DNA of 22,773 nt, taken from the UHGV virus genome UHGV-0256221; one strand, given 5' to 3'. The stretch comes from a virus. Below are positions 3,542 to 11,691 of this stretch, piece after piece (position 1 is the stretch's first letter; each line of letters starts with the position of its first letter). The translations under genes and the position numbers were made by a program. The notes below the pieces were generated by a model that saw only the letters and a list, made by a program, of their open reading frames with translations, made no database searches and had not been told where the DNA came from.

Positions 3542-6500
3542 TTATGCCAAACGCAGCGCTTCAAGGCGGCGCATATCGAAATCATTCAGTTCGTCGGTGT
3601 AGTCGGCGGTGATCGGCGCTGGCCACTCACCCGTATCAAATCCGGTTGCGATGGCTCGCATGGCATTTCGATACTCGAGCATGCCCAGTTCCAGCAGTTC
3701 AGTGGACGCTTCAATAATGGCGATCCAGTGGTAGTTCTCGTCTTTGTTGACGAAAATCCAGAAGAACTGGTCAAGCGCTGCCGTCTCGCAGTACATGGCC
3801 GCGCTTAGGTGATAATCGCGGTCGATGATTTCGCGGTGTAACTTGGCGCGCAGACCTTCCTGTTTGATGTTCCACATGCTGATGGTTTTCAGGTCGGCAC
3901 CGATGCGCACACCGTCCAGGTCGATTTCCAGATCCGGACGTACACGGACTTCCAGCCCGGTTTCGTCGTCGAACCCGAAATAACTCACTTCTACAGCGCG
4001 GTTCGGGTGCGTTAGCAGCTTGCCGGCGGTCGGGTGCTGGAGCAGAGCTTTCTGGATATTCAGCGCGGTACTTAGCTGCTGGCGGGTGACCAGTACTTTT
4101 CCTTCAGGATTCTCGCGCCATGCATCGATAAGTTCGTCGGCAAATACAGCACCCGGGTTTACTGCCTTCACGGCCTGAATCAGATCTGCCTTCGTGCCGG
4201 ATACTTTCAGTGGCTGCGGCTTCTGCGCTTCCTGCGCGACCAGATCAGGATTGATGATTGCCAGTTGCTCAAGCAGCGAGTCGCGGCTACCGCTGGTTTT
4301 TACCGGCGCAGGCTTATTGGATTCTTCCTCTACCAAATCGGCGTTGATGACCGCCAGTTGCTCCAACAGCGCGTCGCGGCTGCCGCTGGTTTTCACTTGA
4401 GCGGGCAGGGTAGCGTTGTACTCTTTGATGCATGCTTTCATGGCAGCAGCAGTGAAGTTTTTTTCGTCGCCAACAATCCGCTTAAACTCAGCAGGCAATT
4501 CGAGATACGCCAGACCGATCGCGTCTTTATCGCCGCCTAAAGGCACTTGAGCGGGCAGGGTAGCGTTGTGCGCTTCCAGTAGCGCTTTGATATCGTCAGC
4601 AGATAGCGGCGCTGGCAGGCTAGTGTTGTACTCTTCCAGTAACGCTTTGATATCTTCGACTGACAGCAGCGCCTGCAGGCTGGCATTGTATTCATCGATA
4701 AACGCGCGGATCGTTGCGGTTGTCGTGAATGCGCCTTCCGGGATTTCTGGCTCAACGCTGAATTCAGCATCCAGTTGCTCAGGTTGCAGCGCCAGTGCAT
4801 GTACCAGGTTCCCCATATCCAGAACCGGAGAGCGTTCCTTCGTGATGGTCTTCTCAACATGGCGCGCATTGAAGTACATCAGGCTCACGCGAGCATCTTT
4901 AACCTGGGTGCTGCTGATACCGTTGGCGGCGTGATATACCTCGTTTGGTAAACCTTCATAACGGCCAGGCTCGAAGAATGCCGGGTACTCGATGGCTGGT
5001 TCTGCCTGCAGGTCTTCCGGCTCGCTGGCTGTTTCCATCGGCACTAATTCCTGTGCTGTGTCGTCTGCCGGAATCGGCGCTTCAGTTGTCAGAGTTTCCT
5101 GCTTGTTGGTGTCATGCTCCTGCGTGTCCAGTTCTTCTTTCAAACCGGATTCCATCGCTGCATATGTTGCATCACCCATCACAGCACCGCAGTCCTGGCA
5201 ATGCCCGCCACCAATAGCGCCGCATCCGGTACACACGGTTTCCGTTACGGTATCTGCCTGCGAATCATCTTCCACAGTACCTTCGCCTGCTGGTAACGCA
5301 GCGCTATTTTCGGCTTGGGGTTGCTCAGTCGTTTCCATCTGGCCATTGTTGGTGGTCTCGCTTTTGTTGCCGTAAAGTTTTGAGTTCGCCATCAAACCCT
5401 CAACCGAAAAGATGCCACCGCCAACGTTGGTGACTTCAGGCTGTTTAGTAGATGTCAGGTCTTCGCGCACCCACTTCGGATCTTCCGGGTCGCTGATTCC
5501 ATCAACAAATTCCCCGCGCTCCGCTGCGAGTGTGTCACTGATTTCCTTATCCCAGCTTTGTGCAGGGTTATGGCGAGCAGCCTTCAATGTTTCATCAGAA
5601 GGTTTTTCGTGGTTGCTTTCTGTCAGGTTAGCGTTGATGTATCCACTGAGACGGCCGGGATACTGGTAATGCTCTGGGTGGCACTCCCTGATCAGCGCGA
5701 AAATGGCTGCGCGGGAGTAATCGAGTATTCCGGCACGTTTGCGAAGAGCTGCTGACCATTCTTTGAAAGGGCTTTCTTTTTTGCTGACGATCTCTTTCGC
5801 CCGACGATAAACACCACCAGGAATGTCGTAGATGTTAAAGTCCATCGGTAGTGTGGCGAGTGCAATTTCAATGTCTAATGAGTCCAGCGTGTGGGTTAAC
5901 TCAGGGTTACGGTCGGTTTTATTGCCGCCGCCTGCGTTTGTGCCTACGTCAGTTCGTGTAACCGACTGTTTATCCAGCGTCGCCTTATTATGTTTTGCGA
6001 ACCACTTCGCCGTTACATCGTCGCGGGAAACGCGATCGCTCTGATGTGTATTGATCCATTCTGCAAAGAAGGTGATCAGGTCATTGAGCATCGGAGCTTT
6101 ACCGTCCACCGGCCAGATTGATTTTGTGGCCGTAAACAGGTCGGCCAGTGTTTCCGGGAACACGTGTTCAATAGGGCGAGTTTTGAAATCACGCGCGGAC
6201 AGCAATACGTTCTGTGCGTATGTTTCATCCATATCCAGCTCTACACGCGTAATCTCCTGCAACTGCTCAGTAGTCAGCGTATCGAAAAGACCGTACAGCC
6301 AGGTGCCGAGTACTTTTTTCTCATATGGAAATTTGCCGTAGGCGAACAGGTCAACAGCTTCCTTCTCTGTTTCTTGCGTAGTGGTTACTGCGTGCGCATC
6401 GGTAGACGCGGTGGCATCGGCGGCAGCCGCTGGTGTGCTTTCATTGTGAAATGCATCATCAGGCTTGCTGCCTGGCTTCAGTTGCCAGGTGCGCATGTCT

Positions 6501-6748
6501 TCCGCCAGCTCATAGCGTTCGCACCAGGTCAAATCAACGGTGCTTTCTTCCGGGAGGTCATTAAATACGGGAAAATCAGTGCGGATCGGCTTCTGATAAT
6601 CTTTACCGCGTCCGGTCTCGATATTCGCATCTTCCAGTTCAACATCGAGCTGGAGATTGGCGCGAGCTTCGGTTTTTGCCGTGAACCAGACGACTGCGTC
6701 TGGCTTGCCGGATTTCTGAGTGGCTTTAACCACGTAGAAGAATTCCAT
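3542..6748 (-). CDS. recE: RecE-like exonuclease VIII (large multidomain, C-terminal nuclease domain)
   Basis: 1068 aa; C-terminal region resembles the RecE PD-(D/E)xK nuclease domain; central acidic linker with tandem repeats and a Cys4 cluster; GAGGA RBS upstream of the ATG at 6748. Confidence 0.7.
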   Translation of the reverse strand: MEFFYVVKATQKSGKPDAVVWFTAKTEARANLQLDVELEDANIETGRGKDYQKPIRTDFPVFNDLPEESTVDLTWCERYELAEDMRTWQLKPGSKPDDAFHNESTPAAAADATASTDAHAVTTTQETEKEAVDLFAYGKFPYEKKVLGTWLYGLFDTLTTEQLQEITRVELDMDETYAQNVLLSARDFKTRPIEHVFPETLADLFTATKSIWPVDGKAPMLNDLITFFAEWINTHQSDRVSRDDVTAKWFAKHNKATLDKQSVTRTDVGTNAGGGNKTDRNPELTHTLDSLDIEIALATLPMDFNIYDIPGGVYRRAKEIVSKKESPFKEWSAALRKRAGILDYSRAAIFALIRECHPEHYQYPGRLSGYINANLTESNHEKPSDETLKAARHNPAQSWDKEISDTLAAERGEFVDGISDPEDPKWVREDLTSTKQPEVTNVGGGIFSVEGLMANSKLYGNKSETTNNGQMETTEQPQAENSAALPAGEGTVEDDSQADTVTETVCTGCGAIGGGHCQDCGAVMGDATYAAMESGLKEELDTQEHDTNKQETLTTEAPIPADDTAQELVPMETASEPEDLQAEPAIEYPAFFEPGRYEGLPNEVYHAANGISSTQVKDARVSLMYFNARHVEKTITKERSPVLDMGNLVHALALQPEQLDAEFSVEPEIPEGAFTTTATIRAFIDEYNASLQALLSVEDIKALLEEYNTSLPAPLSADDIKALLEAHNATLPAQVPLGGDKDAIGLAYLELPAEFKRIVGDEKNFTAAAMKACIKEYNATLPAQVKTSGSRDALLEQLAVINADLVEEESNKPAPVKTSGSRDSLLEQLAIINPDLVAQEAQKPQPLKVSGTKADLIQAVKAVNPGAVFADELIDAWRENPEGKVLVTRQQLSTALNIQKALLQHPTAGKLLTHPNRAVEVSYFGFDDETGLEVRVRPDLEIDLDGVRIGADLKTISMWNIKQEGLRAKLHREIIDRDYHLSAAMYCETAALDQFFWIFVNKDENYHWIAIIEASTELLELGMLEYRNAMRAIATGFDTGEWPAPITADYTDELNDFDMRRLEALRLA
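4240..4720. repeat. Degenerate in-frame tandem repeats (about 60 and 90 bp units) inside recE
   Basis: Near-identical DNA blocks such as gccagttgctc(a/c)a(g/a)cagcg(a/c)gtcgcggct(a/g)ccgctggtttt and cacttgagcgggcagggtagcgttgt occur twice or more; encode repeated LPAQV / SGSRD(A/S)LLEQLA(V/I)IN peptide units. Confidence 0.7.
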
Positions 6749-6879: not shown

Positions 6880-7377
6880 TTATAAATTTCTGGCGAATAA
6901 GCCGTGATTTGCTTCGCGGAAGTCTTTTATTGCTTCCGCTGCCTTTTCTAATTCAACAAAATTTCCTACCGTGTATCTTTTCCCATCAACGCGACAGATG
7001 GCTCTCCAGCGCTGCTTACCCTTGTGCCAGTACACGCCTTTCACTCCGCTTGTGTTGTTCTTCTGGAGTGACTTGTTGAAGTTGTTCTGCGAACAAGTTG
7101 CTTCGCGCAGATTCTTCAATCGGTTGTCAGAGCACTTCCCATTTACATGGTCAATCTGGTCTTCAGGCCATTTACCATGTACGTAGAACCAGGCCAGGCG
7201 GTGTGCGCGATACTTTTTCCCATCAATGATGATTCGAATGTATCCGCGTGAATCAAGATGACCTGCAACTTCACCTGCGGCAACGCGACCACGTTTTTCT
7301 AACCAGGTAAAATCACCTGTTTCCGGTGAGTAGCTGAGTAATTCTTTCAGGCGCTCAAGTGGTAACTTCTCGCTCAT
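6880..7377 (-). CDS. HNH endonuclease with AP2-like DNA-binding domain
   Basis: ORF 6880..7425; HNH-type motif (IDHVNGKCSDNRLKNLREAT) plus AP2-like segment (KGVYWHKGKQRWRA). Start refined to ATG at 7377 (MSEKLPLERL). Confidence 0.65.
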   Translation of the reverse strand: MSEKLPLERLKELLSYSPETGDFTWLEKRGRVAAGEVAGHLDSRGYIRIIIDGKKYRAHRLAWFYVHGKWPEDQIDHVNGKCSDNRLKNLREATCSQNNFNKSLQKNNTSGVKGVYWHKGKQRWRAICRVDGKRYTVGNFVELEKAAEAIKDFREANHGLFARNL

Positions 7378-7388
7378 ATCCGTCACCG

Positions 7389-7550
7389 TTAGCCTTCGTG
7401 AGCCATCTGGTCGAACGAAGCGCAACGTACTGAACAGTAATCACGTTGCTCGCGTTTCAACTGCGTGCCGTGGATAAAGAGCAGTTCGTTTTTAACTTCC
7501 TTCCCTTGCTTGATCGGCTTGCGGCAGTACGCGCATTTTTTCTCCTGCAT
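7389..7550 (-). CDS. Small zinc-ribbon protein (53 aa), not in the ORF track
   Basis: Hand translation: MQEKKCAYCRKPIKQGKEVKNELLFIHGTQLKREQRDYCSVRCASFDQMAHEG; CxxC ... CxxxC; GGAG RBS upstream; stop 12 bp before the HNH start. Position like Rac ydaE, homology unverified. Confidence 0.4.
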   Translation of the reverse strand: MQEKKCAYCRKPIKQGKEVKNELLFIHGTQLKREQRDYCSVRCASFDQMAHEG

Positions 7551-7947: not shown

Positions 7948-8241
7948 ATGAAATCAGTAACTAAGCCATGTCCTATTTGTGGTGAAGATTCTTTGTCTTT
8001 TAACCAGACAAATCAGTTGGTTAACATCAAAGTAAAACCACCAACTATTCGTGAAGTTCCATCAGTGGTTTACGTTTGCGATACTCACGGATGGTTTTCA
8101 CTTTCAGAACAGATAAACAGACTCGTCACATCTAATGACGACCCTGCGGCTAAGCAAAAACTGGCTGTTATTGTCAAAGAGCGATATGTGCCGGAACAGG
8201 ATCAGCCGTTAGCCCTGAAACCTATTGAGTCGCTCGCATAA
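7948..8241 (+). CDS. Zinc-ribbon protein encoded antisense to the early-left operon
   Basis: 97 aa; AAGGAA RBS 5 nt before ATG; CPICG ... VCDTHG (C-x2-C ... C-x2-H); candidate extended -10 (TGgTATGCT) about 35 bp upstream; 3' end overlaps the convergent N-like gene by 20 bp. Confidence 0.45.
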   Translation: MKSVTKPCPICGEDSLSFNQTNQLVNIKVKPPTIREVPSVVYVCDTHGWFSLSEQINRLVTSNDDPAAKQKLAVIVKERYVPEQDQPLALKPIESLA

Positions 8242-8491
8242 GGTCTTTTCGGCTCTCGCTGCGATATCCCAGGCGGTACATTTTCACGTAGGCTTTGCCG
8301 CGAGGAATGCCGCCTGTTTTGTTGAATCTCTGCTGGGCGCGGCGATGGTGTTTTGCTTCAGGGCTGTTTGAACCTTTCCCGCCATTCGATCGAGAACTTG
8401 GGAGTTGCATTGGCTTTTGGCGTGAATAGAATTTACGTGCCCAGCATGCTCCAAAGCCGATCATGCCTGTTTTCTTCGTATTACCTTTCAT
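8222..8491 (-). CDS. Small Arg/Lys-rich protein, first gene after the putative PL; N-like antiterminator candidate
   Basis: 89 aa, highly basic and low complexity; GAGGGG RBS; positional analogy to lambda N only. Confidence 0.3.
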   Translation of the reverse strand: MKGNTKKTGMIGFGACWARKFYSRQKPMQLPSSRSNGGKGSNSPEAKHHRRAQQRFNKTGGIPRGKAYVKMYRLGYRSESRKDLMRATQ

Positions 8492-8570
8492 CTCAATCCC
8501 CTCGTTTGCCCTTGTCGCCAGGCCAGCGGAACGTTTGAACTTGATGCGCTTAGTGTTTCTCGATGGGGTG

Positions 8571-8612
8571 ATGATAGCTAAGGCGATTTATTTTATCAAT
8601 CGCTTAAACGAT
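8571..8612 (-). promoter_or_regulatory. Putative PL promoter with OL operator half-sites
   Basis: Leftward strand: -35 TTGATA, 17-bp spacer, -10 TATCAT; overlaps ATAGC-N4-GCGAT and ATCGC-N4-ACGAT elements matching the OR repeats. Confidence 0.4.
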
Positions 8613-8936
8613 AATATTGTGATTTTGCCGATTATTATTTGATTTATAAAGTGATTTATTTTTGTATGAGATGCGTGATATGCTCAAAAAAACACCAGGC
8701 GGGGATATTGATATGGGTTTAGGAATGGATATGTCACGTGATGAGCTGCTGGAAGATCGCGCTGCTTTCATGGCTGGCGAGATTGGCGGTGCAGTTGTCG
8801 AGTAGATAATCAACGGTGTGGTGATAAGTCGAGATGCGATAGTAGATAGCTTGGAGACTAAGCGTCGCGCGGTTGGAAATGTGATTCACAAAGGAGTGTT
8901 GTGGGATGTCACTGCTATGGTGAGAAAAGGAATATG

Positions 8937-8970
8937 AAAACCGGCATAATGCCGGTTTACTTTGATTTTT
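8937..8970. terminator. Bidirectional intrinsic terminator at the end of the repressor-linked operon
   Basis: AAAACCGGC-ATAAT-GCCGGTTT hairpin with T-runs on both strands; overlaps the stop codon of the 210-aa gene. Confidence 0.55.
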
Positions 8971-9589
8971 CCTGTTGGTGAAGTACTCGTGGAGTAGTTG
9001 GTTCTTGAGGTAATTGGATGATAACAGGTTGCTGCGCTACTGGTTGAACTACGGGCGGATCACTCTTCAAGGCAGAAACAAGACTAGGTAATGCAACGAC
9101 AACCGCAATGATAACGCCAAAAATAGCAAGCCTAGTGGAAATACCTGATTGAATACCGCCAATCGCAGTGTTTATTCCTGTAATTTGCCCTTGTATACCT
9201 TCGAATTTGCCATTGATGGCTTTTACATCCCCATCAACGCTATCCATTTTCCCTTCAATTTTAGAAGAAATAGAGCTAATAGATGAATTGAGCGATGCCA
9301 GCTGAACGTTCATATTCTCGCGTGACAAAGCCATTTCAGCTCTAATCGAAGATGCAATGGACTCCATCTCCGCCTTATTGGCAGCTAGAAGTGCTTGCAT
9401 TTCTTCACGGCTAACTGATGACATTTCATTTCCCCCATCAGTTTCATTAGCTTCATCTGTTGATTTGATAAAGTTAGTATACATTTCTTCTTTATCGACG
9501 CGTAGTCTGTTTTGAACATTGGGGTACAGGTCATCTTTATCAATGCCAGAACCGCAGTCTGGGACAGCTTTGAGAGATGGGCCCATCAC
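8957..9589 (-). CDS. Tail-anchored coiled-coil membrane protein (candidate exclusion / abortive-infection effector)
   Basis: 210 aa; long heptad-like Ser/Ala/Glu-rich region, single C-terminal hydrophobic helix (LAIFGVIIAVVVALPSLVSAL), Pro/Gln-rich tail; start overlaps the upstream stop (ATGA); AT-rich. Confidence 0.55.
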   Translation of the reverse strand: MMGPSLKAVPDCGSGIDKDDLYPNVQNRLRVDKEEMYTNFIKSTDEANETDGGNEMSSVSREEMQALLAANKAEMESIASSIRAEMALSRENMNVQLASLNSSISSISSKIEGKMDSVDGDVKAINGKFEGIQGQITGINTAIGGIQSGISTRLAIFGVIIAVVVALPSLVSALKSDPPVVQPVAQQPVIIQLPQEPTTPRVLHQQEKSK

Positions 9590-9948
9590 TTCCCATCCTC
9601 TCCTTGATCTTCTTTTCTTTTATTAATCAGTGTCCTGGCTTTTTTATAAGAAAAAAGCAGTACATGTGCGCAGTGATCACACGTGATTCGAAATAGTGGC
9701 ATACCGCCAGGATATGTCACAGCACTATCAGTATCAGGTTTGTATTGTGCATAACTAAGTGTTTCGATCACATGATGTTTTGGCTGATTTTCTTCTACAT
9801 CAAGATCAAAGGCACCAACTACAGACCATGACTGGTTCCCGCAGATTTGGCAAGTTATTGGTTTTTTGAATGAATTTATGAAATCAATGAACTCATCCGC
9901 TGTGATAATCTCGGAGTTTGCTTCACTATGAAATAATTCCGATTTCAT
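9586..9948 (-). CDS. Zinc-ribbon protein, first gene downstream of the repressor gene
   Basis: ORF 9586..9972 (TTG); likely ATG at 9948 (MKSELFH) with AAGGA RBS; CQICG ... CDHCAH; only 44 bp after the repressor stop, no terminator between; AT-rich. Confidence 0.5.
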   Translation of the reverse strand: MKSELFHSEANSEIITADEFIDFINSFKKPITCQICGNQSWSVVGAFDLDVEENQPKHHVIETLSYAQYKPDTDSAVTYPGGMPLFRITCDHCAHVLLFSYKKARTLINKRKEDQGEDGK

Positions 9949-9992
9949 AATTATGATCCTTTTTTGGGCCAAAGTAGATAAAAAGTACAGTT

Positions 9993-10676
9993 TTACAATC
10001 GGTTATACTTTATTGATTCATGAATCAATGCCTTACCCATTACGTAGAGTTGATCCTGATTACCTTCGTTAATGTACCACTTCTCATAAGCTGAGTTATC
10101 AGACAAAACTGCCAACCTATCGCCCTGCATCTGCAAGCGCTTCACATGGAAATGTTGTCCGAAAACGAACGCATAAACACCGTCGACCTTGAAGTTTCTT
10201 ACAGAAATATCGAAAAACAATCTGTCACCAGACTGTATAGTTGGACACATGCTGTCGCCATCGACCGTCATTACTTTTACGTCTTCCTGAGAACGATTTC
10301 CGAAGAGTGAACGAGCGTGTTCGGTTGTGAACTCAATGGCGTGTAGAACCTCAACAAACTCAGAAATCATGAAAGAACCTGGCCCCGCGCTAAATGTCAG
10401 GTCAAGTACGTCAACTCTGAATATGTTTGAGTCTTTTTTTGTCGCGGTAATGGGAGGCGGTAGCTGGCCATCGTTACGCATCGGTCCGGATCCCGTGGAA
10501 AGCCATTCAGGGCGAACATTGAGAACAGAAGCTATCTCGACCGTTTTTCTTGAGCTTGATGCACCATTTAGCAGCTTGTTAACACTTGACTGTGCCATGC
10601 CAACTGCCTTAGCTAGCTTGCCCTGTGTATAACCCGCCTCATTCATTGCGCGATCTAATCGCTCAGAAAAACTCAT
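9993..10676 (-). CDS. CI-like repressor (N-terminal HTH, C-terminal S24 LexA-like peptidase domain)
   Basis: 227 aa; HTH (YTQGKLAKAVGMAQSSVNKLL); S24 motifs (GDSMCPT, KR); divergent from the cro-like gene across an operator-rich region. Confidence 0.85.
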   Translation of the reverse strand: MSFSERLDRAMNEAGYTQGKLAKAVGMAQSSVNKLLNGASSSRKTVEIASVLNVRPEWLSTGSGPMRNDGQLPPPITATKKDSNIFRVDVLDLTFSAGPGSFMISEFVEVLHAIEFTTEHARSLFGNRSQEDVKVMTVDGDSMCPTIQSGDRLFFDISVRNFKVDGVYAFVFGQHFHVKRLQMQGDRLAVLSDNSAYEKWYINEGNQDQLYVMGKALIHESIKYNRL

Positions 10677-10707
10677 TAAAGATACCCCCTAATAACCTTC
10701 ATAAATA

Positions 10708-10778
10708 TTATCGCCACAGCGATTAATAAGCAAAAAATCGCATAGGCGATTGACATTCGTTAAAGCGATAAACATAAT
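10708..10778. promoter_or_regulatory. OR operator cluster with PR (and presumed divergent PRM)
   Basis: Three ATCGC-N4-GCGAT elements (about 10710-10723, 10737-10750, weaker 10756-10769); PR -35 TTGACA (10750-10755), 17-bp spacer, -10 CATAAT (10773-10778). Confidence 0.6.
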
Positions 10779-10805
10779 CAACCTAAATTGATAGAAGGAG
10801 CGATT

Positions 10806-11036
10806 ATGAAAAACCCTGCTGTAGAAAAAGCGATTGCAATCGCCGGTAGTCAGAAAGAGCTAGCGAAGCGATGTGGTAAGGCCCAATCCACGGTCTGTGA
10901 CTGGTTAAATGGGAAAAAACAAATCTCCCCGATCCATGTTCCTGTTTTGGTAAAGGCAAGCGAAGGACAGATTCAAGCTCATGAATTCCGTCCCGACCTT
11001 CCTGAATTGTTTCCGCATCCACATTCAGCCGCCTGA
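10806..11036 (+). CDS. Cro-like / YdaS-family HTH regulator
   Basis: ORF 10788..11036; ATG at 10806 with GAAGGAG RBS; small HTH protein (SQKELAKRCGKAQSTVCDWLNG) transcribed from PR. Confidence 0.7.
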   Translation: MKNPAVEKAIAIAGSQKELAKRCGKAQSTVCDWLNGKKQISPIHVPVLVKASEGQIQAHEFRPDLPELFPHPHSAA

Positions 11037-11067
11037 CCGGCGGCGCTAACCATCAAGGGAAAGCACT

Positions 11068-11607
11068 ATGCAATCACTTACGTTTTACCAGGATACAGGA
11101 TTGCCGCAGCAGGCGGTGATAAATCGTGCTCAAGCGTGCAAGGGACCTAGCCATGAAGATATTCGTGATGCCGTTCGCTCATGGGCGGGTGTAGATGGTC
11201 AGGATGTCGTTTCTGCTCTGATCATCGAAGAGTACCAGGCGCAGGGTGGTGATGACATCACTTTCCCTGATGATCTCTGCCGAAAGCGCCAGAAGCTGTT
11301 TCGCTTCCTGGACAACCACTTCAACAGCGAGCGTTACCGCGAGAACGTCCGCCAGCTGACTCCGGCAATCCTCGCTGTCTTGCCGATTGTGTACCGCAGT
11401 CGCCTGCTGCCAGAAGACAACATCATGGCTCGCCTGGCACGTATGGAGAAAGAAACCAGCGAAGCAAAGATTGCCGTCGCAATGGATGCGCCACGCCATC
11501 AAAAGCTGAAAGAGTTGAGCGAGGGGATCGTGGAGATGTATCGCGTTGACCCTGGGTTAACCGGTCCACTGATGGAGATGGTGCAGATGATGCTGGGGGC
11601 TATATGA
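11068..11607 (+). CDS. YdaT-like protein in the CII position
   Basis: 179 aa directly after the cro-like gene; PAILAVLP segment resembles Rac YdaT (from memory). Confidence 0.5.
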   Translation: MQSLTFYQDTGLPQQAVINRAQACKGPSHEDIRDAVRSWAGVDGQDVVSALIIEEYQAQGGDDITFPDDLCRKRQKLFRFLDNHFNSERYRENVRQLTPAILAVLPIVYRSRLLPEDNIMARLARMEKETSEAKIAVAMDAPRHQKLKELSEGIVEMYRVDPGLTGPLMEMVQMMLGAI

Positions 11608-11691
11608 CCGGTTCAAAAATGGCGAAAGCCGCGGTGCGCGAACACCAACGGCTTTCAGGTGCAAAAACAGTGCGTAATTGCGGAGAACAGT

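Follow-up and report, generated by a model that had tools for sequence, protein, structure and literature searches.

What does a prophage keep between its repressor gene and its leftward operator, and what might the lysogen gain from it? In lambdoid phages the cI-to-N slot houses RexAB, the oldest known abortive-infection system, and likewise Nun in HK022 and Stk in 933W. More generally, the position downstream of a prophage repressor is a mosaic and defence hotspot that holds RexAB and, in BTP1, BstA (PMC8585504). In NT1F31, another lambdoid prophage, the same slot carries HigBAC, a toxin-antitoxin-chaperone (TAC) system that protects the lysogen (preprint). The virus genome UHGV-0256221, an enterobacterial lambda-like prophage of which 22,773 nucleotides (nt) are referred to here as the window, has two translationally coupled genes in this place: gene A, for a small cytosolic zinc-ribbon protein, and gene B, for a predicted tail-anchored coiled-coil membrane protein. 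This cassette is a mobile accessory module (a moron) and a recurrent occupant of the cI-to-N slot; we found it neither annotated nor covered by a defence-database model or a paper. A specialist would hardly be surprised by defensive cargo at this address; what is new, and widespread, is a plug-in partner design built on an effector resembling the DUF1640 proteins. Judged from sequence, some anti-phage role of the cassette is fairly probable. That it is specifically an exclusion module co-expressed with the repressor, pairing a swappable cytosolic specificity subunit with a membrane effector, is a plausible, still tentative reading, and the case for exclusion or abortive infection is drawn from genomic association and protein architecture only.

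A recurrent unit behind the repressor

How is the cassette wired into the immunity region? The original prediction placed two translationally coupled genes on the minus strand here, 44 bp after the repressor stop with no terminator between, and all of this holds. Gene A (9586..9948, minus strand; 120 amino acids (aa), phrog_4293), the window's version of a variable partner subunit, runs from an ATG at 9948 to a TGA at 9586-9588. Gene B (8957..9589, minus strand; 209 or 210 aa, phrog_5820 with E 1.4e-70) starts either at the ATG at 9586, as in the RefSeq entry for an identical sequence, overlapping the TGA of A by 1 nt, or at the GTG at 9589, with an overlap of 4 nt; a GGAGAGG Shine-Dalgarno sequence lies upstream of the start. 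Ahead of both, as the first gene of the putative operon, is that of a cI-like prophage repressor (9993..10676, minus strand; 227 aa), with HTH_3 (E 8e-8) and Peptidase_S24 (E 5e-17) domains in Pfam and a match to the transcriptional repressors of phrog_4 (E 1e-57). Direct reading of the sequence gives a spacer of exactly 44 nt from the repressor stop to the start of A (9949..9992, minus strand), containing the AAGGA Shine-Dalgarno sequence of A at 9957-9961, and scans for terminators and promoters found neither on the minus strand of this spacer. The unit ends at a bidirectional intrinsic terminator (8938..8958, both strands; a 9-bp stem with five GC pairs, dG -13.1), flanked by T-runs on either strand and with the B stop codon (8957-8959) inside the hairpin. 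The strong bidirectional terminator was correctly foreseen; its location just before the leftward operator and promoter (OL/PL) was not, as these lie about 340 bp further on. This repressor-linked position, in a defence and mosaic hotspot, speaks for lysogen expression and an exclusion role: A and B would most likely be transcribed in lysogens by read-through from the maintenance promoter of the repressor, and translational coupling would keep A in a fixed ratio to B.

Is this arrangement peculiar to the window? The suggested likeness to the lambda cI-rexA-rexB layout proved quite literal in HK244 and HK542, phages of lambda immunity (lambda cI, operators, N and nut sites) in which a B-family cassette has replaced rexAB. 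Their GenBank records place the pair between cI and the annotated Timm, oL1-3, pL, nutL and N, and in HK244 the hairpin after B is the one annotated as Timm. The B-family member of HK244, ORF HK24404, is 70% identical to window B over aa 55-200 (E 2e-69), and the layout of repressor, partner, B and terminator is alike; the HK244 partner HK24405 (144 aa, phrog_5893), however, is unrelated to the window's A, and the first ~55 residues of B differ too. The HK244 pair (HK24404/HK24405) and the HK542 gp35 pair were deposited in 2007 and 2012, annotated as hypothetical. The description of the cassette as undescribed is thus right for defence models and for the literature, where accessions, PHROG identifiers, HK244/HK542, the rexAB hotspot and DUF1640 led to no account of these proteins, and too strong for the sequence record, in which the HK244/HK542 version has stood as hypothetical open reading frames (ORFs) since 2007.

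How far does the family reach? Searches with a single sequence and then with a profile, clustered at 90% identity, gave 35 and then 85 B-family clusters, all from Enterobacterales (Escherichia, Enterobacter, Klebsiella, Kosakonia, Leclercia, Cedecea, Salmonella, Yersinia, Serratia, Pantoea, Pectobacterium, Morganella, Proteus, Providencia and Xenorhabdus). The labels of the 85 clusters are all hypothetical except for two assigned automatically (DUF1640; baculovirus PEP C-terminus). At every locus examined B sits in a prophage or phage context. A repressor of the long S24 or short helix-turn-helix type, one or two small genes and then B make up six of seven genome contexts, and a repressor homologue lies upstream on the same strand at 37 of the 40 informative IMG/VR loci. 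The order repressor-partner-B-terminator is found at all 13 repressor-linked loci checked by hand, whose repressors share 24-71% mutual identity and belong to two structural classes; none of the 13 has a convincing terminator between repressor and partner, and 12 have a GC-rich hairpin and T-run no more than about 10 nt beyond B. Start and stop codons of partner and B overlap at most loci. A survey of the same slot in related prophages, which the original prediction had called for, therefore finds B cassettes behind many different repressors.

Among complete E. coli genomes, 63 of 5,426 carry a B-family gene, clinical (human-stool) isolates among them. Most of the 63 (49) have the HK542 type, behind a lambda-like cI and near N, ral, cIII, kil, gam and bet; nine have A+B pairs 81% identical to those of the window behind a different repressor, with prophage neighbours that include ymfL and yfdP/Q/R; and five have a cassette identical to the window's. 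Away from repressors, an A-type gene and B form a pair in the tail module, directly after the tape-measure gene, at L009, L062 and L063, and at L014 and L018 a more distant pair borders the capsid module; both are classic moron sites. Many HK542-type loci (L028-L038, L044, ~2496-2837) have an extra ORF of 113 aa (MAFTDLEYQAVKKEVHQF…) between repressor and partner; in IMG/VR, units of three genes thus arise downstream of four or more different repressors.

Acquisition and mobility

Was the cassette acquired as cargo? The AT-richness that suggested so is real: its guanine-plus-cytosine (GC) content is 40.4% vs 51.5% for the window, within the lowest 1.6% of 1-kb windows, and that of the repressor gene is likewise somewhat low (45%). 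A related E. coli O157:H16 prophage (NZ_CP062876) has a related repressor but no cassette behind it and confirms a clean insertion (8943..10010), the window having 1069 bp where the O157:H16 prophage has 90 bp. Homology resumes on either side, at 79% over 8654-8942 and at 83% over 10011-10415, and the 90 bp of the empty site consist of the repressor stop, a spacer of ~60 bp and the terminator. The O157:H16 prophage has a gene of its own about 1 kb past the immunity region (L020, 1997-3112), encoding a RelA/SpoT-domain protein; this may be a defence gene of the small alarmone-synthetase toxin type, a different cargo in a neighbouring position.

What moves, the cassette or a larger block? Five complete E. 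coli chromosomes share the immunity module with the window at 98.5% identity over 8505-11664 and 100% over 8800-10800, and elsewhere the window either shows 81-87% identity to these chromosomes or cannot be aligned. A near-identical module between divergent flanks indicates that the repressor and cassette move as a unit among different lambdoid or Rac-like prophages. Colinearity of the whole window with E. coli NZ_AP021894 was considered and rejected, the match being confined to the same 8505-11664 (98.5%). A search for near-identical DNA in phage genomes found none.

Interchangeable partners

What accompanies B when it is not A? At least three partner families precede B: the zinc ribbon (A3), the 144-aa phrog_5893 family as in HK244 (A4), which is the partner at 30 of the 40 IMG/VR loci, and a family of 84-101 aa (A5). 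They are mutually unrelated, with a probability below 1% in profile-profile comparison. The sequence class of the B N-terminus tracks the class of the partner, and BLAST connects N-termini only if they belong to one partner class, whereas the core of B is 50-80% identical across partner classes. Since the N-terminus follows the partner and the core is conserved, a recombination joint must lie inside gene B, near codon 55-60. Such co-variation is as expected if the partner docks on the N-terminus of B.

Cognate pairing of this kind also resembles the specificity between toxins and their immunity proteins. Could B be a membrane toxin and the partner its neutraliser, with a self-directed role in prophage addiction or in tuning the prophage's own induction, lysis timing or lysis-lysogeny switch? 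The small acidic protein (A has an isoelectric point of 5.45) is encoded first and the membrane protein second, with translational coupling; another lambdoid prophage has a toxin-antitoxin-chaperone system at this position; and tuning of this sort has recently been shown for RexA (PMC11077077). The partners, however, have no recognisable DNA-binding or antitoxin fold, Pfam, NCBIfam and further family scans matched neither A nor B to a toxin-antitoxin family, A, a zinc protein with a compact and confident fold, is unlike a labile antitoxin, and the window has separate Cro-like and CII-like regulators for lytic control. A module of this kind, with toxin neutralisation and a role in addiction or in timing, is regarded as quite improbable on balance, and a defensive and a toxin-antitoxin role are not mutually exclusive.

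Architecture of the two proteins

What kind of protein is A? The two Cys pairs first noticed in it (CQICG and CDHCAH) are the heart of the family. They form the knuckles C33-Q-I-C36 (9841..9852, minus strand) and C90-D-H-C93 (9670..9681, minus strand), located from the codons and the invariant columns, and these four cysteines are the sole invariant columns in the alignment of 41 A-family sequences. Two CxxC knuckles on beta-hairpins, conserved throughout the family, make A a Cys4 zinc ribbon. Its structure model is compact and confidently folded, and no known fold relative was found. A profile search of 1.84 billion representatives collects ~40 small proteins of 100-130 aa, and the search with A as query returned no phage record for this protein. 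In all seven A-family contexts, down to ~18-25% identity, the abutting or overlapping next gene encodes a single-pass coiled-coil membrane protein. It is a clear B-family member in the window, L009 and L011, and a more distant B-like protein, coiled coil first and C-terminal transmembrane (TM) helix after it, in L014 and L016/17. At L012/L013 (3856-4377) and L018/L019 (787-1266) it is a protein of 159-173 aa with a cytoplasmic N-terminus, a TM helix and a C-terminal coiled coil (phrog_24865), and L012 and L013 share an identical pair of A and this protein behind two differing cI/cro sets.

And B? Alignment, AlphaFold2 (AF2) and hydropathy agree with the predicted long coiled coil, single C-terminal TM helix and Pro/Gln-rich tail. 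The protein begins with a variable cytoplasmic region of ~58 aa (9413..9586, minus strand), predicted to be disordered (pLDDT < 50); across the family alignment this N-terminus is hypervariable and ~40-130 aa long. The conserved core opens with S-R-E-E-L-x-A-x-L-x-A-N-K-A-E, in which E63, A66, L68, K72, A73 and E74 are invariant. No motif of the family varies less than the A-N-K-A-E within it (9368..9382, minus strand), N71, K72, A73 and E74 being invariant or nearly so. AF2 gives a long helix over residues 61-146 and a hydrophobic helix over ~150-175, the monomer as a whole being a single long continuous helix (pLDDT 57.7), and the heptad a/d positions have a hydrophobic occupancy of 0.70 in the best register. 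Glycine-rich heptads (GKFEGIQGQITGINTAIGGIQSGIS) precede the single TM helix, which spans aa ~149-174 (9065..9142, minus strand; hydropathy 2.66 over 146-177, AF2 helix 150-175). Beyond it is a Pro/Gln-rich tail of ~35 aa, presumed periplasmic (8960..9064, minus strand), with an invariant P188 and a QP(I/V)IIQ(V/L)PQ motif that is kept in most members (QPIIIQVPQ in B). As B has no signal peptide and ~145 residues ahead of its TM helix, a tail-anchored topology with the N-terminus inside and the C-terminus outside is most likely. Sequence and profile searches of the PDB gave coiled-coil and zinc-finger noise only, with no hit to B among solved structures, and scans of Pfam, PHROG and NCBIfam led to no curated family for B, only to sub-threshold coiled-coil models. 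Within PHROG the likeness to tape-measure coiled coils is weak and not significant (phrog_8462, E 0.0098).

Two further variants of B deserve mention. At the IMG/VR locus L058 (3492-3932) B is a solo protein of 146 aa that lacks the variable N-terminus, its sequence opening directly with the conserved core, and has no partner that could be recognised; a gene for a protein of 281 aa precedes it. The other end of B is mosaic in P0127-P0130, L011 and L062, where the glycine-rich GINTAISGIQSGIS-TM segment is exchanged for a different TM segment (…SSVQWMLGIILALLAIIFAIPQVQ…) and the N-terminal core is unchanged.

Is the business end of B, then, its C-terminus? Phage DNA entry is blocked at the envelope by HK97 gp15, P22 SieA and T4 Imm, for example, and B could act likewise, as an inner-membrane protein whose periplasmic tail or TM helix stops incoming DNA. 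B might interfere with tape-measure proteins, ejection proteins or an entry factor of the inner membrane; the partner would then serve assembly or stability and not sensing. Few parts of the B family are as well conserved as the TM helix and the QPIIIQVPQ motif. A and B also occur just downstream of tape-measure genes (L009, L062), a typical site for injection-blocking morons, and the weak phrog_8462 match and the solo B of L058 point the same way. Such a block, however, needs no cytosolic partner, and the partner is nearly always present, coupled and matched to the cytoplasmic N-terminus of B; moreover the periplasmic tail is merely ~35 aa of low complexity and the tape-measure similarity falls short of significance. 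Superinfection exclusion at the envelope by this route is held to be unlikely.

Relation to known systems

Is the cassette simply a divergent Rex system? It shares with RexAB the slot between cI and tImm/PL and the orientation of cI, and each consists of a gene for a cytosolic protein followed by one for a membrane protein. The hallmark of Rex is exclusion of T4 rII and other phages together with membrane depolarisation. RexB, however, is a polytopic membrane protein, whereas B combines a long coiled coil with a single TM helix at its C-terminus, and A is a 120-aa zinc ribbon. Scans of Pfam, PHROG, NCBIfam and PADLOC found no homology of A or B to RexA or RexB, and the SieB and BstA families are absent among the Pfam and PHROG hits of either protein, so the earlier failure to recognise any of these families was well founded. 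PADLOC-DB v2 profiles gave no match for A and, for B, solely PbeC (E 0.019, 11 bits). Membership in Rex, Sie, BstA or another known system was ruled out, as only unnamed PHROGs and sub-threshold coiled-coil matches were obtained. Nor did searches of Pfam, PHROG, PADLOC, PDB and NCBIfam reveal housekeeping homology for either protein. By these comparisons the cassette appears Rex-like in its location, the order of its genes and the places that their products take in the cell, and membership in the RexAB family is rejected. BstA, HigBAC, Nun and Stk are also encoded downstream of the repressor, presumably from its promoter, and protect the lysogen, but their proteins and mechanisms are unrelated to those of the cassette and none is a pair of a zinc ribbon and a tail-anchored coiled-coil protein.

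Where does B come from, if not from Rex? The nearest architecture is that of the DUF1640/CCDC90-like proteins (PF07798; MCUR1, CCDC90B), which like B have a variable head, a motif at the start of the stalk, a coiled coil and a C-terminal TM helix. They are membrane proteins of prokaryotes and organelles in which a beta-layer, [aliphatic]-A-T-K-x-[DE], opens a trimeric stalk (PMC4786415). AF2, hydropathy and heptads give B the same stalk with a single C-terminal TM anchor, and its A-A-N-K-A-E stands at the place equivalent to the beta-layer, with N for T; the AF2 monomer is a continuous helix. B differs from DUF1640 in its Pro/Gln periplasmic tail and glycine-rich heptads. Window B has no match to PF07798 at E <= 0.1, one of 31 B-family members has one at E <= 0.01, and distant members from Proteus and Providencia reach 25.5-31.1 bits (E down to 3e-7), none passing the gathering threshold of 33.5 bits; some distant members bear the NCBI name "DUF1640". 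On sequence B is a borderline DUF1640 relative, and by analogy it is probably a trimer.

This kinship suggests one more role, lysogenic conversion that has nothing to do with phages. The tail-anchored B would then serve as a scaffold and alter host membrane physiology or a stress response, with the partner as a regulator. That B members lie just under the PF07798 cut-off and have an ANKAE motif resembling the beta-layer speaks for this, as does MCUR1, which is described as a scaffold factor (PMC7519068); a scaffold for a channel or transporter complex, as MCUR1 is for MCU, would be one example by analogy. The confinement of the B family to prophage and phage contexts at all loci examined goes against it, and fast swapping of partner and N-terminus would be expected of a module in an arms race sooner than of a conversion gene with a physiological role. 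Conversion of this sort, its channel-scaffold version included, is quite improbable.

A last resemblance is to alpha-pore-forming toxins of the ClyA superfamily. The subunit MakE gives sub-threshold matches in 18 of 31 B members (best E 2.9e-6), the score for B being 20.6 bits vs a cut-off of 360; SmhB is reached at E 0.099, and the family profile aligns the helix-to-TM junction of B with the hydrophobic head of SmhB, for example QITGINTAISGIQSGI of B with DIDGINAAIDGAIAGI. ClyA-type toxins are 350-aa helical bundles, whereas B has ~200 aa and a single TM helix. Homology to these toxins was rejected, the scores being far below threshold, and the likeness is kept as a lead: its recurrence would be compatible with a membrane-inserting role of B.

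A possible mechanism

How might such a cassette exclude a phage? B would sit in the inner membrane as a tail-anchored trimer, with its coiled-coil stalk and disordered N-terminus in the cytoplasm and its Pro/Gln tail in the periplasm. A would dock on the variable N-terminus of B and act as the specificity subunit, a sensor or a gate. When a sensitive phage infects, the state of the A-B complex would change and the conserved membrane part of B would then perturb the inner membrane, in a Rex-like abortive infection; in the same proposal, B might instead act on an envelope step of infection. A broader generalisation is more doubtful and is put forward as a speculation: B and its three or more unrelated partner families would form a hitherto undescribed class of immunity modules in prophages throughout the Enterobacterales. 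A DUF1640-like trimeric effector would be re-targeted by exchange of its N-terminal docking region jointly with a cognate sensor, the zinc ribbon being one such sensor, and the whole would ride on the transcript of the repressor.

Several observations weigh against exclusion by a sensor and an effector. With no match to a PADLOC model, the defence role is assigned through guilt by association. Members with no long N-terminus or recognisable partner, such as that of L058, suggest that B may act alone. The A-type partners of L012/13 and L018/19 pair with a membrane protein of the opposite order, TM helix and then coiled coil, which weakens the case for a single uniform mechanism. The co-variation of partner and N-terminus could come from the mere physical linkage of adjacent DNA, and the MakE/SmhB likeness from coiled-coil and TM composition alone. 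Finally MCUR1, which is among the closest sequence relatives of B, is described in PMC7519068 as a scaffold factor and not as a toxin or pore.

What would follow if the cassette does exclude phages? The defence catalogue would gain a new protein family, bacterial DUF1640-like proteins would have their first function, and the coupling of one membrane effector to exchangeable sensors could be studied in a simple natural system. Exclusion is directly testable with HK542, which is available in culture.

Operators and neighbouring genes

The cassette and repressor are framed by two operator regions. OL/PL (8571..8612, minus strand) consists of two half-palindromes of the ATCGC-N4-GCGAT type, at 8574-8587 and 8599-8612, and a sigma-70-like leftward promoter (8599->8571, TTGATA-17-TATCAT). 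The rightward operator and promoter, OR/PR (10710..10778, plus strand), have two perfect palindromes, at 10710-10723 and 10737-10750, and the promoter TTGACA-17-CATAAT. A search for the ATCGC-N4-GCGAT pattern gave six hits vs 1.4 expected, four of the six at OL and OR. No RNA genes were detected in the window by Rfam or ARAGORN.

Between OL and the terminator lies a small convergent gene (8731-8937, plus strand; phrog_3975 family, 68 aa if intact) that shares the bidirectional terminator with the cassette. Its reading frame is interrupted by a TAG at codon 25, a Leu codon in the intact copy of E. coli O157:H16, and RefSeq flags it as a pseudogene in an identical E. coli sequence. Leftward, an Arg/Lys-rich ORF of 89 aa (8222-8491, minus strand; phrog_29236, E 1.5e-56) starts ~80 nt downstream of the PL-like promoter and could, by its position, be an N-like early leftward gene; the homologous E. 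coli record lists no coding sequence at the matching position. On the strand opposite to the neighbouring early-left genes, 7948-8241 (plus strand) encodes a protein of 97 aa (phrog_31519, E 1.7e-60) that has a CPxCG motif in its N-terminal part and only a weak likeness to Lar restriction-alleviation proteins (E 0.03). Further along, a homing-type endonuclease gene with HNH_3 and AP2 domains (6880-7425, minus strand; phrog_99, E 6.6e-73) sits between the gene for a RecE-like exonuclease and YdaE/Kil-like genes. The RecE-family exonuclease itself (3542-6748, minus strand; 1068 aa) has in its middle region several tandem copies of a motif of ~30 aa (…IKALLEEYNTSLPAPLS… / …KTSGSRDALLEQLAVINADLV…).

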